DNA of 64,000 nucleotides from a virus: positions 32,001 to 96,000 of the IMG/VR virus record IMGVR_UViG_3300044960_000113. The stretch is one strand, 5' to 3'. This document shows, piece by piece, positions 1,750 to 10,723 of this stretch. A program made the position numbers and the translations under genes. The first letter of the stretch is position 1, and each line of letters starts with the position of its first letter. A model generated the notes under the pieces. It did no database searches, was not told where the DNA came from, and saw only the letters and a program-made list of their open reading frames with translations.

Positions 1750-2607
1750 TTAGTTCCATTCCCAGATAAAACCTCCACCAACATTAATAAATGAATGATC
1801 TGGCTCTGATTTAAAATTATTATTAAAACAATAAAAACCACCACCAACTTCTCTTGGTGCACCTAGTAATGATGTTAATAGATTATTTGAACAATCAAAA
1901 TTACCACCTATTTCTTTTGGTGCACCTTTTAATGAAGTTAATTTATTACTATAACATGTAAAATTGTCACCTACTTCTCTTGGTGCACCTAGTAATGATG
2001 TTAATAGATTATTTGAACAATTAAAATTGCCACTCACTTCTTTTGGTCCACCTTCTAATGATGTTAATTTATTATCTGAACAATTAAAATCACCATCTAT
2101 CTCTTTTGGCGCACCTAGTAATGATGTTAATTTATTATTTGAACAATAAAAATCACCACTTACTTCCATTGGTGCACCTTGTAAAGATGTTAAATCATTA
2201 TATGAACAATTAAAATCATTATTTACTTCTCTTGGTGCACCTTTTAATGATTTTAATTGATTATCATGACAATCAAAATCACCACCAACATATTTTGGCG
2301 CACCTTCTAATGATTTTAAAATATTAAATGAACAATCAAAATTACCACCCACTTCTCTTGGTGCACCTAGTAATGATTTTAATTGACTAAGTGAACAATT
2401 AAAATTACCATCTACTTCACCAAATTGAACTGGTATATATTCTAATTTTTTATTAGAAATATCAACATCTCCATTAACATCAACTATACCATTATCATGA
2501 ATTGTATAATTTTTAATATACATTTCTTTTAACCAATTCTCTATTTCTTGTTTATCGGTTAAAAATTTATGTTGTTCTTCTTTTAAAAATAATTCTTGTA
2601 GTTTCAT
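1750..2607 (-). CDS. 21-aa LRR-like repeat protein, 10 FxC modules
   Basis: MKLQELFLKEE N-cap, repeats FxCxxNxLxSLxGAPxEVxG, C-cap NNFKSEPDHSFINVGGGFIW. Confidence 0.9.
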   Translation of the reverse strand: MKLQELFLKEEQHKFLTDKQEIENWLKEMYIKNYTIHDNGIVDVNGDVDISNKKLEYIPVQFGEVDGNFNCSLSQLKSLLGAPREVGGNFDCSFNILKSLEGAPKYVGGDFDCHDNQLKSLKGAPREVNNDFNCSYNDLTSLQGAPMEVSGDFYCSNNKLTSLLGAPKEIDGDFNCSDNKLTSLEGGPKEVSGNFNCSNNLLTSLLGAPREVGDNFTCYSNKLTSLKGAPKEIGGNFDCSNNLLTSLLGAPREVGGGFYCFNNNFKSEPDHSFINVGGGFIWEWN

Positions 2608-3137
2608 TTCCAGATAAATTCTCCACCAATATTAATAAATGAATGATTTGGTTCTGATTTAAAATTGTTATTTTTACAAATAAAATTACGACCTACTTCT
2701 TTTGGTGCACCTTGTAATGATGTTAATTGATTATCTGAACAATTAAAATAACCACCCACTTCTCTTGGTCCACCTTGTAAAGATATTAATTGATTATCTG
2801 AACAATCAAAATTACCACCTACTTCTTTTGGTGCACCTTGCAATGATGTTAATTTATTACCATGACAATAAAAACCATCACGAACTGCTCTAGGCGCACC
2901 TTGCAATGATATTAATTGATTATGTGAACATGAAAAATAACCATCTACTTCACCAAATTGAACTCGTAGATATGTTAATCTTTTATTAGAAATACCAACA
3001 TTACCATTAACATCAACTATACCATTATCATGAATAATATAATTTTCAATATATAATTTATTTAACCAATTCTCTATTTCTTGTTTATTAGTTAAGAATT
3101 GTTGTTCTTCTTTTAAAAATAGTTCTTGTAGTTTCAT
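2604..3137 (-). CDS. 21-aa LRR-like repeat protein, 5 modules
   Basis: Same caps and repeat; start placed at MKLQE (3137) by paralog alignment and ATGA overlap (ORF track starts at 3143). Confidence 0.9.
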   Translation of the reverse strand: MKLQELFLKEEQQFLTNKQEIENWLNKLYIENYIIHDNGIVDVNGNVGISNKRLTYLRVQFGEVDGYFSCSHNQLISLQGAPRAVRDGFYCHGNKLTSLQGAPKEVGGNFDCSDNQLISLQGGPREVGGYFNCSDNQLTSLQGAPKEVGRNFICKNNNFKSEPNHSFINIGGEFIWK

Positions 3138-3922
3138 TTCCAAATAAATTTTCCGTTAATATCAATAAATGAATGATCTGGTTCTGATTTAAAATTGTTA
3201 TATTTACAAAAAAAATTACCACCTACTTCTTTTGGTGCACCTTCTAATGATGTTAATTTATTATTTGAACAATCAAAAAAACTACCAACATATATTGGTG
3301 CACCTTTTAATGATGTTAATTTATTATGCGAACAATGAAAACCACCACTAACTTCTCTTGGTCCACCGTGTAATGTTATTAATTCATTATTATTACACAT
3401 GAAATCTCCACCTACTTCTCTTGGTGCGCCTTCTAGTGATGTTAATTTATTTATATGACAATCAAAATTACCACCTACTTCTTTTGGCGCACCTAGTAAT
3501 GATGTTAATAGATTATTAAAACAATAAAAACCAATGTTAATTTCTCTTGGTGCACCTTGTAATGATATTAATTGATTATATGAACAATCAAAAACACCAT
3601 CAACTTCTATTGGTCCACCTTCTAATGATTTTAATTGATTATTATAACACTCAAAATTACCACCTACTTTTCTTGGCGATCCTTTTAATGATGTTAATTT
3701 ATTAAATGAACAATTAAAATAACCATTCACATTACCAAATTGAACTGGTATATATGTTAATTTTTTAAAATGAATATCAACATCTCCATTAACATCAACT
3801 ATACCATTATCATGAATGTTATAGTTTTTAATTTTCATTTTTTTTAACCAATTTTCTATTTCTTGTTTATTGGTTAATAATTTATGTTCTTCTTCTTTTA
3901 AAAATAATTCTTGTAGTTTCAT
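3134..3922 (-). CDS. 21-aa LRR-like repeat protein, 9 modules
   Basis: Same caps and repeat consensus. Confidence 0.9.
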   Translation of the reverse strand: MKLQELFLKEEEHKLLTNKQEIENWLKKMKIKNYNIHDNGIVDVNGDVDIHFKKLTYIPVQFGNVNGYFNCSFNKLTSLKGSPRKVGGNFECYNNQLKSLEGGPIEVDGVFDCSYNQLISLQGAPREINIGFYCFNNLLTSLLGAPKEVGGNFDCHINKLTSLEGAPREVGGDFMCNNNELITLHGGPREVSGGFHCSHNKLTSLKGAPIYVGSFFDCSNNKLTSLEGAPKEVGGNFFCKYNNFKSEPDHSFIDINGKFIWK

Positions 3923-8566: not shown

Positions 8567-9411
8567 TTCCAGGTAAATTCTCCACCAATATTAATAAATG
8601 AATGATTTGGTTCTGATTTAAAATTGTTATTTTTACAAATAAAATTATGACCTACTTCTTTTGGTGCACCTTGTAATGATGTTAATTGATTATCTGAACA
8701 ATAAAAACTACCACCAACTTCTCTTGGTGCACCATATAATGATGTTAATTGATTATTTGAACAATTAAAATAACCACCAACTTCTCTTGGTCCACCATGT
8801 AATGATGTTAATTGATTACGTGAACAATAAAAATCACCACCTACTTCCCTTGGTCCACCTTGTAAAGATGTTAATTGATTACGTGAACAATAAAAATCAC
8901 CACCTACTTCCCTTGGTCCACCTTGTAAAGATGTTAATTGATTATCTGAACAATCAAAATTACCACCTACTTCTTTTGGTGCACCTTCTAATGATGTTAA
9001 ATCATTATATGAACAATTAAAATCACCATTTATTTCTATTGGTCCACCTTGTAATGATGTTAATTTATTAAACGAACAATCAAAATTACCACCTACTTCT
9101 TTTGGTGCACCTTCTAATGATGTTAATTTATTACCATGACAATAAAAACTATCACGAACTGCTCTAGGCGCACCTTGCAATGATATTAATTGATTATGTG
9201 AACATGAAAAATAACCATCTATTTCACCAAATTGAACTCGTAGATATGTTAATCTTTTATTAGAAATACCAACATTACCATTAACATCAACTATACCATT
9301 ATCATGAATTGTATAATTTTTAATATACATTTCTTTTAACCAATTCTCAATATCTGATTTATCGGTTAAGAATTGTTGTTCTTCTTTTAAAAATAATTCT
9401 TGTAGTTTCAT
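8563..9411 (-). CDS. 21-aa LRR-like repeat protein, 10 modules
   Basis: Same caps; contains a perfect internal 63-bp duplication at 8804-8944. Confidence 0.9.
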   Translation of the reverse strand: MKLQELFLKEEQQFLTDKSDIENWLKEMYIKNYTIHDNGIVDVNGNVGISNKRLTYLRVQFGEIDGYFSCSHNQLISLQGAPRAVRDSFYCHGNKLTSLEGAPKEVGGNFDCSFNKLTSLQGGPIEINGDFNCSYNDLTSLEGAPKEVGGNFDCSDNQLTSLQGGPREVGGDFYCSRNQLTSLQGGPREVGGDFYCSRNQLTSLHGGPREVGGYFNCSNNQLTSLYGAPREVGGSFYCSDNQLTSLQGAPKEVGHNFICKNNNFKSEPNHSFINIGGEFTWK

Positions 9412-10130
9412 TTCCAGATAAATTCTCCACCAATATTAATAAATGAATGGTCTGGTTCTGATTTAAAATTGTTATTTTTACAAATAAAATCATGACCTAC
9501 TTCTCTTGGTGCACCATATAATGACGTTAATTGATTATCTGAACAATAAAAACCACCAACTTCTTTTGGTCCACCTTCTAATGATGTTAATTGATTATTT
9601 GAACAATTAAAATAACCACCAACTTTTTTTGGTCCACCTTGTAATGATATTAATTTATTACTATAACAATAAAAATTGCCATTTATTTCTCTTGGTGCAC
9701 CTTGTAATGATGTTAATTGATTACGTGAACAATTAAAATAACCACCCACTTCTCTTGGTGCATTCTGTAATGATGTTAATTGATTATCTGAACAATCAAA
9801 ATTACCACCTACTTCTTTTGGTGTACCTTGTAATGATGTTAATTTATTACCATGACAATAAAAACCATCACGAACTGCTCTAGGTGCACCTTGCAATGAT
9901 ATTAATTGATTATGTGAACATGAAAAATAACCATCTACTTCACCAAATTGAACTGGTATATATGTTAATCTTTTATTAGAAATATTAACATTACCATTAA
10001 CATCAACAATACCATTATCATGAATAGTATAATTTTTAATGTTCATCTTTTTTAACCAATTCTCAATATCTGATTTATTGGTTAAAAATTTATGTTGTTC
10101 TTCTTTTAAAAATAGTTCTTGTAGTTTCAT
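9408..10130 (-). CDS. 21-aa LRR-like repeat protein, 8 modules
   Basis: Same caps; one module is 20 aa (KEVGGFYC). Confidence 0.9.
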   Translation of the reverse strand: MKLQELFLKEEQHKFLTNKSDIENWLKKMNIKNYTIHDNGIVDVNGNVNISNKRLTYIPVQFGEVDGYFSCSHNQLISLQGAPRAVRDGFYCHGNKLTSLQGTPKEVGGNFDCSDNQLTSLQNAPREVGGYFNCSRNQLTSLQGAPREINGNFYCYSNKLISLQGGPKKVGGYFNCSNNQLTSLEGGPKEVGGFYCSDNQLTSLYGAPREVGHDFICKNNNFKSEPDHSFINIGGEFIWK

Positions 10131-10723
10131 TCCCAGATAAATTCTCCACCAATATTAATAAATGAATGGTCTGGTTCTGATTTAAAATTGTTATTTTTAC
10201 AAATAAAATCACGACCTACTTCTCTTGGTGCATCTTTCAATGATGTTAATTTATTATTTGAACAATTAAAATAACCACCTACTTCTCTTGGTCCACCTTG
10301 TAATGATATTAATTTATTACTATAACAATAAAAATTGCCATTTATTTCTCTTGGTGCACCTTGTAATGATGTTAATTGATTACGTGAACAATTAAAATAA
10401 CCACCCACTTCTCTTGGTCCACCTTCTAATGATTTTAATTGATTATGATAACAATCAAAATTACCACCCACTTCTCTAGGTGCACCTAGTAATGATTTTA
10501 ATTGACTAAGTGAACAATCAAAAAAACCATCTACTTCACCGAATTGAACTGGTATATATGTTAATCTTTTATTAGAAATATTAACATCACCATTAACATC
10601 AACTATACCATTATCATGAATGGTATAATTTTTAATGTTCATCGGTTTTAACCAATTCTCAATATCTGATTTATCGGTTAAGAATTGTTGTTCTTCTTTT
10701 AAAAATAGTTCTTGTAGTTTCAT
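10127..10723 (-). CDS. 21-aa LRR-like repeat protein, 6 modules (first of the array in transcription order)
   Basis: Same caps and repeat consensus. Confidence 0.9.
   Translation of the reverse strand: MKLQELFLKEEQQFLTDKSDIENWLKPMNIKNYTIHDNGIVDVNGDVNISNKRLTYIPVQFGEVDGFFDCSLSQLKSLLGAPREVGGNFDCYHNQLKSLEGGPREVGGYFNCSRNQLTSLQGAPREINGNFYCYSNKLISLQGGPREVGGYFNCSNNKLTSLKDAPREVGRDFICKNNNFKSEPDHSFINIGGEFIWE

Follow-up and report, generated by a model that had tools for sequence, protein, structure and literature searches.

Organization of the LRR gene array

The window analyzed here is a stretch of 64,000 nt that corresponds to positions 32,001-96,000 of the virus record IMGVR_UViG_3300044960_000113; coordinates preceded by G000 refer to the whole 184-kb record. 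According to the ORF listing, twelve LRR genes occupy positions 1750-10723 of the window, all on the minus strand. The first gene of the array is g12 (198 aa; 10127..10723), which has 5 full 21-residue modules and a cap module. It is followed, with full modules plus the C-cap half-module given in brackets, by g11 (240 aa, 7+1; 9408..10130), g10 (282 aa, 9+1; 8563..9411), g9 (346 aa, 12+1; 7526..8566), g8 (177 aa, 4+1; 6996..7529), g7 (220 aa, 6+1; 6337..6999), g6 (283 aa, 9+1; 5489..6340), g5 (220 aa, 6+1; 4830..5492), g4 (304 aa, 10+1; 3919..4833), g3 (262 aa, 8+1; 3134..3922), g2 (177 aa counted from the ATG at 3137, 4+1; 2604..3137) and, as the last gene, g1 (285 aa, 9+1; 1750..2607). If the half-module is included, the counts from g1 to g12 are 10, 5, 9, 11, 7, 10, 7, 5, 13, 10, 8 and 6, a total of 101, exactly as in the initial annotation. 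That annotation had also described head-to-tail genes in which each stop overlaps the next start, and an ATGA overlap is indeed present at all 11 junctions. The twelve genes would thereby be expressed as a single translationally coupled operon. The spacing between modules is exactly 21 residues, apart from a single spacing of 20 in g11, TRF detects 63-nt arrays in each of the 12 genes, and the similarity between paralogs is far beyond chance, with E-values from 1e-44 to 1e-246.

The operon is headed by a 120-aa ORF on the same strand (10725..11087) that starts with MKLNEI and whose stop lies 1 nt ahead of the g12 ATG; it has no match in Pfam, PHROG or the atlas, and its family is unassigned. 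A T4 late-promoter-like box, TATAAATA, is found 44 nt upstream of its ATG (11131..11138, minus strand), but as the window shows no enrichment of this motif, it is weak evidence for a late promoter. At the other end, immediately past the g1 stop, an out-of-frame relic of a C-cap (NNNFESKPDKSFIDIKN) lies at 1700..1750 on the minus strand. The twelve-gene extent initially given for the array stands, but it does not cover the whole family, as the record contains at least 16 LRR copies. Two more intact ones lie in the window on the minus strand, namely g13 (201 aa; 14783..15388) and g14 (279 aa, 9+1 modules; 15385..16224), the latter with a diverged leader, MKLSDLFEH. These two are again joined by an ATGA overlap, and the start of g14 overlaps in the same way with the stop of a 69-aa ORF (16221..16430, minus strand). 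Outside the window, one copy is frameshifted (G000 138956-139592) and another one is truncated by the contig end (G000 183677-184280). The remaining 14 of the 16 copies are intact, and each of them has both caps.

The array is carried by an uncultured T4-like jumbo (giant) phage, with topoisomerase II gp39/gp52-like genes and RnlA/gp63 as T4-like markers. Such a design was initially thought to be without a characterised counterpart in phages, but it is not unique: in public data, clustering at 50% identity gives 24,879 representatives of the LRR family, and further T4-like jumbo phages carry arrays of 10-12 genes, with 24 copies in one phage. The array is not identical across relatives, and it differs even in the closest ones.

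Predicted fold and relation to known LRR proteins

The paralogs are proteins of 20-38 kDa, mostly acidic with a pI of 4.7-6.7, and inspection of their sequences revealed no evident signal peptide or hydrophobic segment. They consist of an 11-residue leader, an N-cap, 4-12 full 21-residue modules and a C-cap, which bears out the constant caps and variable module number noted initially, and they end 26 residues past the last module. The module is of the type VxGxFxCxxNxL, with the scaffold residues F2, C4, N7, L9, L12 and P16. The predicted fold is an LRR solenoid, as had been proposed; the AF2 model of g6 (pLDDT 84.9, pTM 0.80) has one strand per 21 residues, the N-cap packs onto the solenoid, and all Foldseek matches of this model are LRR proteins, among them SDS22, SspH1/2, IpaH and YopM. 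In phmmer searches with g6, no PDB sequence matched better than internalin J (InlJ, 3bz5; 4.7e-19), and SspH2 was found at 1.3e-18. Among the array proteins, Pfam gives a single match that exceeds its cut-off, namely LRR_4 on g9, which scores 41.2 bits (cut-off 27). The 21-residue period, the LRR_4 score, the predicted solenoid and the exclusively LRR-type Foldseek matches together place the proteins in the LRR superfamily, whose members consist of tandem units of 20-30 residues with an LxxLxLxxNxL-type core and fold into a curved solenoid lined by a parallel beta-sheet on the inside.

Internalins possess a signal peptide, an internalin N-cap, an inter-repeat Ig-like region and a surface anchor. 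The phage proteins do not qualify as internalins, as a reading of their sequences revealed no N-terminal hydrophobic signal and no domain beyond the caps, and only LRR_4 exceeds its Pfam cut-off. They do belong to the VxGxLxLxxNxL or InlJ-type cysteine-ladder class described by Miyashita, Kuroki and Matsushima 2014 (PMID 24164306) and summarized in PMC8181103, which is defined by the segment V-x-G-x-(L/F/C)-x-(L/F/C)-x-x-N-x-L, a Cys at a core position and a 21-residue unit. The phage segment reads V19 G20 G21 x F2 x C4 x x N7 x L9; in the 102 modules counted, F2, C4 and L9 are invariant, N7 is present in 100 and G21 in 71, and either V (79) or I (23) occupies position 19. Listeria internalin J (PDB 3bz5) shares the period, the Cys at a core Leu position and the V-x-G-x-F-x-C-x-x-N-x-L module, whereas the phage proteins are small, have their own N- and C-caps, occur as tandem paralogs and, as read from their sequences, possess neither a signal peptide nor a cell-wall anchor.

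The type III effectors SspH1/SspH2, IpaH, SlrP and YopM are likewise short bacterial-type LRR solenoids and provide top Foldseek and phmmer matches. In solved complexes of these effectors the host protein is bound through the LRR domain, and IpaH also occurs as multiple paralogs per genome. In contrast, the period is 20 residues in the effectors, and the phage proteins have neither a NEL E3-ligase domain nor a type III secretion signal; as they end shortly after the last module and give no Pfam NEL match, they cannot be assigned to the IpaH/SspH NEL effectors.

The surroundings of the array could suggest that the proteins are virion-surface adhesins or host-recognition modules, anchored to fibres or to the particle by their constant N-terminal part. 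The array lies near RnlA/gp63 and near tail-fibre-like genes (18130-22387), one relative has an LRR of the array family in fusion with lectin-like domains (three Laminin_G_3), Goslar fibre proteins have been proposed to contain LRR/beta-helix domains, and a constant anchor with a variable body is the typical layout of receptor-binding protein sets. However, the proteins are small and modeled as one solenoid that has neither a fibre nor a trimerisation domain, they are conserved at both ends and not at the N-terminus alone, and the modeled N-cap is packed against the solenoid. As 16-24 distinct surface proteins per virion would also be unusual, we consider a role as adhesins improbable.

Variable positions, possible selection and mosaicism

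The modules combine a fixed scaffold with a few highly variable positions. The entropy is 0 at F2, C4, L9, L12 and P16, and it reaches 1.75-2.9 bits at positions 1, 3, 5, 6, 8 and 13, all of which except position 13 lie on or beside the inner beta-strand. Positions 1, 3, 5, 6 and 8 are again hypervariable in the arrays of two other phages. In nearest-neighbour module pairs, pN is 0.312 and pS 0.203 at variable codons, as compared to a pN of 0.035 and a pS of 0.067 at scaffold codons (pN/pS 0.52), and the nonsynonymous-to-synonymous excess has a Fisher p of 5.5e-12; these values come from non-orthologous, recombining modules in an AT-rich and codon-biased genome, and the excess of pN over pS at variable codons is suggestive of positive selection, but not proof of it. 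In this respect the initial annotation is supported: it is the predicted binding face that varies, with variability concentrated on the beta-strand and in the ascending loop, where pN exceeds pS.

The paralogs are mosaics of each other. Nearly or fully identical blocks are shared between residues 158-218 of g3 and 95-155 of g5 (183 nt, 98.9%), 124-167 of g11 and 102-145 of g12 (131 nt, 100%), and 130-163 of g6 and 214-247 of g9 (101 nt, 100%), and in each pair the module index differs. As these mosaics are out of register, ordinary inherited recombination accounts for the diversity. New variants would arise by unequal and out-of-register homologous recombination among the 63-bp units, and selection would then act on the variable face of the recombinant paralogs, where residues 1, 3, 5, 6 and 8 differ between modules.

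The initial annotation had compared this design to the variable lymphocyte receptors (VLRs) of jawless vertebrates, in which an incomplete germline gene, flanked by cap-less LRR cassettes, is completed somatically by copy-choice assembly. The comparison holds for the protein architecture only, which in both cases has a cap at either end and, between the caps, LRR modules that vary in number and are hypervariable on their inner face. The phage caps, on the other hand, are not related to those of VLRs and lack disulfide knots, each gene is complete, and inherited recombination explains the diversity. A programmed diversification, either by VLR-like cassette copying or by a diversity-generating retroelement (DGR), would fit the layout of constant caps and variable modules, and the variable codons, mostly NAT (AAT, GAT, TAT, CAT), superficially resemble the outcome of adenine mutagenesis. 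The second-position A is mostly retained in these codons, though, which differs from the NNY spectra of DGRs, and no reverse transcriptase (PF00078) was detected in the 184-kb record, while control genomes did match, which speaks against a DGR target. Neither cap-less cassettes nor an incomplete germline or acceptor gene were found, as both caps are present in each of the 14 intact genes, and homologous recombination explains the mosaic tracts. Programmed diversification is therefore very improbable.

Scarcely more probable is that the array is a functionless by-product, produced by runaway duplication of a recombinogenic repeat. The frameshifted copy, the relic C-cap and the inherent instability of 63-bp repeats could be seen in this way, but most copies are intact, the scaffold residues are invariant with the low pN/pS given above, the coupling is kept at every junction, and distant phages keep the same design. 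We think that the array is probably an inherited multigene family of small LRR solenoids, diversified by recombination, that provides the phage with a set of protein binders for host targets that vary. As such targets, the initial annotation had proposed host defence proteins or, alternatively, eukaryotic proteins, and both are hypothetical. If its members do bind host proteins, phages would maintain germline repertoires of modular recognition proteins and would thereby use the structural solution of plant and animal immunity. The 24,879 cluster representatives would then be candidates for takeover or anti-defence factors of a new class. Independently of this, a scaffold that is fixed except for five or six positions in each 21-residue module is a natural library for the engineering of binders.

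The N-terminal leader and a possible delivery with the phage DNA

The leader MKLQELFLKEE has a nucleotide identity of 98.3% and a pN of 0 among the paralogs, and its pS is below that of its flanks. It is similar to the T4 capsid-targeting sequence (CTS) MKTYQEFIAE, and in the AF2 model of g6 its residues 1-5 and 8-11 have a pLDDT below 50. T4-type proteases cleave after Glu, as in Alt at ITE-6 and LTE-619, and each of the 13 copies with a full leader, the frameshifted one included, has two possible sites, LQE5 and LKE10. Of 51 family members with distinct N-termini, 29 have [LI]xE within residues 3-14, as compared to 22% of other ORFs. In the relative G001, a leader of about 25 residues is common to 46 of 238 genes, of which 22 encode LRR proteins, 20 form an unrelated family and 4 are singletons, and four leader-bearing genes are located directly 3' of the gp23 capsid gene. 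Based on the likeness to the T4 CTS and on this shared leader next to a capsid gene, head packaging and injection of the LRR proteins are plausible but unproven. The proteins would enter the prohead via the leader, which would be trimmed after Glu, and they would be injected along with the DNA. A T4-type capsid-targeting and processing signal is the function of the leader that we favour tentatively as delivery route, without regarding it as probable.

Alternatively, the binders might act inside the infected cell only, in host takeover or anti-defence, with an N-terminus that simply belongs to the cap or to the translation-initiation region. This appears possible, if rather unlikely. The conservation of the leader DNA and its reduced pS could result from a translation-initiation constraint or from gene conversion, a homologue in a cultured Vibrio phage does not have the leader, and the LRR proteins are acidic, whereas T4 internal proteins are basic. 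Furthermore, neither a head module nor a gp21-type protease (Peptidase_S77) was found in the 184-kb record, which is 52% complete, and a processing enzyme can thus be deduced from relatives only; gp21-type protease and/or gp23 are found in family-carrying phages, and Peptidase_S77 is present in SRILMA and G003. Difficult to reconcile with a purely intracellular role are the portable G001 leader on unrelated proteins and its clustering near gp23, the frequency of [LI]xE, the separation of the low-confidence leader from the folded cap, and the fusion of an LRR of the array family to the portal protein in one relative. In the own genome, MK[LIV]xE[LIF][FLIY], a motif defined post hoc, starts 5 of 232 non-LRR ORFs with 0.05 expected, and four of these five are unrelated ORFs adjoining a broken LRR copy. 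The leader motif also starts an ORF at G000 113360, which by eye, without a family search, reads as a HAD-type nucleotidase; as this is an unlikely capsid cargo, it counts against packaging.

The T-even internal proteins are a polymorphic, injected anti-restriction set whose members share only the CTS. Like the leader-bearing proteins discussed here, they combine a short MK...E(F/L)..E leader and (L/I)xE sites with otherwise diverse proteins in a T4-like phage, but the LRR proteins use one repeat scaffold in at least 16 copies, and their packaging and cleavage are putative. The most far-reaching possibility, a self-recombining inherited arsenal of LRR binders that are packaged into the head via a portable leader and injected, with each paralog neutralising or redirecting a different host protein, for instance of a defence system, is in our opinion unlikely; it would represent an LRR counterpart of the polymorphic T4 internal-protein locus at a far larger scale. 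Should the leader be a packaging tag, the proteins injected by an entire group of uncultured T4-like jumbo phages would be marked by it and could be predicted from sequence. Expansions of ankyrin, LRR and FNIP repeats are known from giant viruses, in which paralogous repeat-domain binders likewise occupy several per cent of the genome (PMC5753266), whereas the array described here is found in a bacteriophage, is organized in coupled tandem operons, belongs to another LRR class and has a shared leader.

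Anatomy and extent of the LRR array

The LRR block of this phage is, judged from its sequence, a real, expressed-looking and inherited repertoire of predicted LRR binders with a variable face. It consists of 12 ORFs on the minus strand (window 1750-10723; g12 comes first and g1 last), and every junction is an ATGA stop/start overlap. When the 21-residue modules are counted by the anchor F-x-C-x-x-N-x-L-x-x-L, the genes g1 to g12 contain 9, 4, 8, 10, 6, 9, 6, 4, 12, 9, 7 and 5 full modules. The initial annotation had described 12 coupled genes with 10, 5, 9, 11, 7, 10, 7, 5, 13, 10, 8 and 6 modules (sum 101), and these values are reproduced once the half-module in the constant C-terminal end (C-cap) is included; ORFs, overlaps and module counts are all as claimed there. 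Module spacing is exactly 21 residues, the sole exception being one spacing of 20, and TRF detects 63-nt tandem arrays in all 12 genes with 69-86% matches. Overall identity between the paralogs is 64-83%.

Further copies are found elsewhere in the IMG/VR record, which comprises 184,280 bp at a completeness of 52% (CheckV) and whose positions 32001-96000 make up the window. Two intact genes, g13 (window 14783-15388) and g14 (window 15385-16224), are ATGA-coupled to each other, another copy is frameshifted within a module (record positions 138956-139592), and one is truncated at the contig end (record positions 183677-184280). The record holds at least 16 LRR copies, which together take up some 12 kb, around 7% of its length. 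Directly past the g1 stop, a C-cap relic of 17 residues lies out of frame on the minus strand (window 1700-1750; NNNFESKPDKSFIDIKN). It agrees with the consensus in 11 of the 17 residues and looks like the scar of an earlier recombination or deletion.

Fold of the proteins and variation on the module

An AlphaFold2 model of g6, computed from the single sequence (pLDDT 84.9, pTM 0.80), has a short strand each 21 residues and an N-cap formed by a helix and beta structure, with low confidence for residues 1-5 and 8-11. Foldseek matched this model exclusively to LRR proteins in the PDB, with SDS22, SspH1/SspH2, YopM and IpaH at the top, and the best solved relatives by sequence are Listeria InlJ (3bz5, 4.7e-19) and then SspH2 (1.3e-18). 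The strand periodicity, the LRR-only structural matches and the similarity to InlJ and SspH2 bear out the LRR assignment originally made by inspection. Pfam recognizes the proteins weakly as LRR_4, and PHROGs places them in families of unknown function. The module consensus V19-G20-G21-x1-F2-x3-C4-x5-x6-N7-x8-L9 fits VxGxLxLxxNxL, which PMC8181103 presents as a "novel" highly conserved segment of LRRs and which is attributed to Miyashita et al. 2014. The repeat type is therefore already known, and the array's repeat is kin to the InlJ/IpaH-type LRR.

In the 102 modules pooled from the 14 intact genes, F2, C4, L9, L12 and P16 never vary and N7 hardly does, and entropy reaches 1.75-2.9 bits at positions 1, 3, 5, 6, 8 and 13. 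The strand in the g6 model spans F2 to x5 (DSSP). In standard LRR geometry, the concave surface would be lined by positions 1, 3 and 5, with 6 and 8 in the ascending loop; position 13 is outside the strand/ascending-loop segment. When every module of the 12-gene array is paired with every other, positions 1, 3, 5, 6 and 13 show a pN of 0.39-0.47 versus a mean pS of 0.215. In 79 nearest-neighbour module pairs, which were selected on scaffold codons, the variable codons give a pN of 0.312 versus a pS of 0.203 (ratio 1.54), and the scaffold codons 0.035 versus 0.067 (ratio 0.52); the Fisher p for the nonsynonymous excess at variable codons is 5.5e-12. This excess fits diversifying selection acting on the predicted binding face, but it falls short of proof, because the modules are non-orthologous and recombining, in a genome with strong codon bias. 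The hypervariable positions 1, 3, 5, 6 and 8 recur in two other phage contigs with the family, G001 (IMGVR_UViG_3300033463_006479; 164 modules) and G002 (38 modules). We infer that the LRR proteins have binding targets and might serve an anti-defence role.

Origin of the diversity

Ungapped scans between paralogs revealed 27 tracts with a length of 90 nt or more and an identity of 95% or more, many of them at unlike module indices. Examples pair g3 158-218 with g5 95-155 (183 nt, 98.9%), g7 115-163 with g10 177-225 (145 nt, 99.3%), g11 124-167 with g12 102-145 (131 nt, 100%), and g6 130-163 with g9 214-247 (101 nt, 100%). Gene lengths differ by whole modules. Taken together, the off-index tracts and the whole-module length steps, along with the frameshifted copy and the C-cap relic, argue for unequal and ectopic recombination, in which the 63-bp units would recombine homologously and give rise to new LRR variants.

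As an alternative, the variation could be generated by a DGR. This was rejected, since no reverse transcriptase was found in the 184-kb record, and since the variable codons, chiefly AAT, GAT, TAT and CAT with the second-position A retained, form a NAT spectrum unlike that of a DGR. The initial annotation had likened the array to a VLR repertoire, and this likeness holds for the protein architecture only: all array genes are complete, so nothing in their arrangement is VLR-like, and there is no cassette-and-acceptor arrangement. Programmed assembly of the VLR type was rejected because cap-less cassettes are lacking.

Distribution and relatives

Scanned in full with HMMER, a set of 1.84 billion cluster representatives yielded 24,879 family members at E ≤ 1e-3, of which 2,915 also passed E ≤ 1e-30, and no LRR family member looked up carries a functional name. 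A cap-motif scan of bacterial genome contigs gave a single match, on a 4.4-kb MAG contig, and the cap-specific subfamily is nearly absent from bacterial species genomes. Phage records with the family include two Vibrio phages, Lak phages and huge phages of 640-735 kb, and T4 gp23, a gp21-type protease or both are present in the family-bearing phages. A cultured Vibrio phage, VB_VaC_SRILMA (PP083314.1), encodes a homologue, WXB48033.1, that lacks the leader. Of the 24 LRR paralogs in G001 (192 kb), most form two blocks of neighbouring genes, one of 8 and one of 12; each paralog has 3-12 modules, and their caps are entirely unlike those of the window array. G002 contains seven paralogs. From this distribution, the array design is recurrent rather than unique, and it is kin to viral repeat-protein expansions. 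A comparison of the array in relatives, as initially suggested, found that the arrangement is not identical: in the closest relatives the array's caps recur with an identity of about 70%, and the genes are placed differently, adjoining the terminase gene. Searching for nearer relatives with the DNA pattern of the leader (residues 1-11) yielded two short IMG/VR contigs and none among metagenome contigs. A literature search turned up no description of phage LRR arrays, and a comparative review of jumbo phages (PMC7824862) does not mention LRR.

Fusions of this LRR type also occur in other phages, in P0252 and P0163 with a Phage_portal_3 portal protein and with three Laminin_G_3 domains. In P0001, P0008 and P0035 from relatives, the LRR is fused to an N-domain of about 200 residues in which R, YGKG and SDG motifs are conserved; this N-domain had no sequence match in Pfam, PHROGs or the PDB. 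A weak atlas lead (score 0.86) points to ART-PolyVal, but as the AF2 model reaches a pLDDT of 38, we do not claim an ADP-ribosyltransferase.

The leader and possible packaging

The leader MKLQELFLKEE is conserved at 98.3% DNA identity with a pN of 0, and an indel-variable junction follows it. It resembles the T4 capsid-targeting sequence (CTS) MKTYQEFIAE and includes LQE and LKE; T4-type prohead proteases cleave after Glu in such motifs. The T-even internal proteins are a polymorphic, injected anti-restriction set with only the CTS in common, and the array proteins may be kin to such T4-style leader-tagged accessory proteins. In the record, MK[LIV]xE[LIF][FLIY], a motif chosen post hoc, opens 5 of 232 non-LRR ORFs versus 0.05 expected. 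Four of these are small, mutually unrelated ORFs beside the frameshifted LRR copy (record positions 136613-142678, outside the window), with the N-termini MKVSE(L/I)F, MKVSELL or MKLKELL. Of 51 family members with distinct N-termini, 29 have [LI]xE between residues 3 and 14, versus 22% of other ORFs. Most tellingly, 46 of the 238 called genes in G001 open with a leader of about 25 residues, M(K/R)ILxSxxYINEKLxIKPVTK. These genes comprise 22 from the LRR family, 20 that form an unrelated family and four singletons, and four of the leader-bearing genes directly follow the gp23 gene. The portal-protein fusion of this LRR, seen in one relative, points the same way. Packaging of the LRR proteins in the phage head via the leader is, in our view, possible rather than probable. 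Against it count the post hoc choice of the motif, the resemblance of one motif carrier to a nucleotidase (sequence read by eye), the acidic character of the LRR proteins and the absence of a prohead protease from the fragment.

Genome context and expression signals

The flanking genes encode PhoH, a stand-alone ClpP-like protease, RnlA/gp63, tail-fibre-like proteins, ThyA and T4-type topoisomerase II subunits. As the topoisomerase subunits (PHROG 551 and 543; window 29254-32521) and RnlA/gp63 (window 13410-14519), all on the minus strand, are of T4 type, the array carrier is a T4-like jumbo phage. The T4 head families PF03420, PF07068 and PF07230 have no match in the 184-kb record, a result that is uninformative rather than negative because this fragment is itself without a head module. 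The ClpP-family protease (window 11364-11966, minus strand; Pfam CLP_protease, 1e-34) is located just upstream of the array operon, adjoins no head gene and may act as a prohead protease or be an auxiliary gene of the ClpP kind.

Each LRR run is headed by a small minus-strand ORF whose family was not recognised: one of 120 residues (window 10725-11087; no match in the atlas search) before the array, with the g12 start one base past its stop, and one of 69 residues (window 16221-16430) before g14/g13. As each abuts or overlaps the start of the first LRR gene of its run, both are probably translationally coupled to it. A TATAAATA box 44 nt upstream of the 120-residue ORF is weak evidence, as this motif is not enriched in the AT-rich window. 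Within conserved C-cap codons, GGTGGAG lies 12-14 nt ahead of every internal start and may be its ribosome-binding site. A scan for sigma-70 promoters and terminators was uninformative: promoter-like sites were rarer than in shuffled sequence, and the predicted "terminators" are shadows of the repeat. Long plus-strand ORFs also run across the array, for example one of 157 residues at window 5713-6186; they mirror the 63-nt repeat of the other strand and are read as non-genes.
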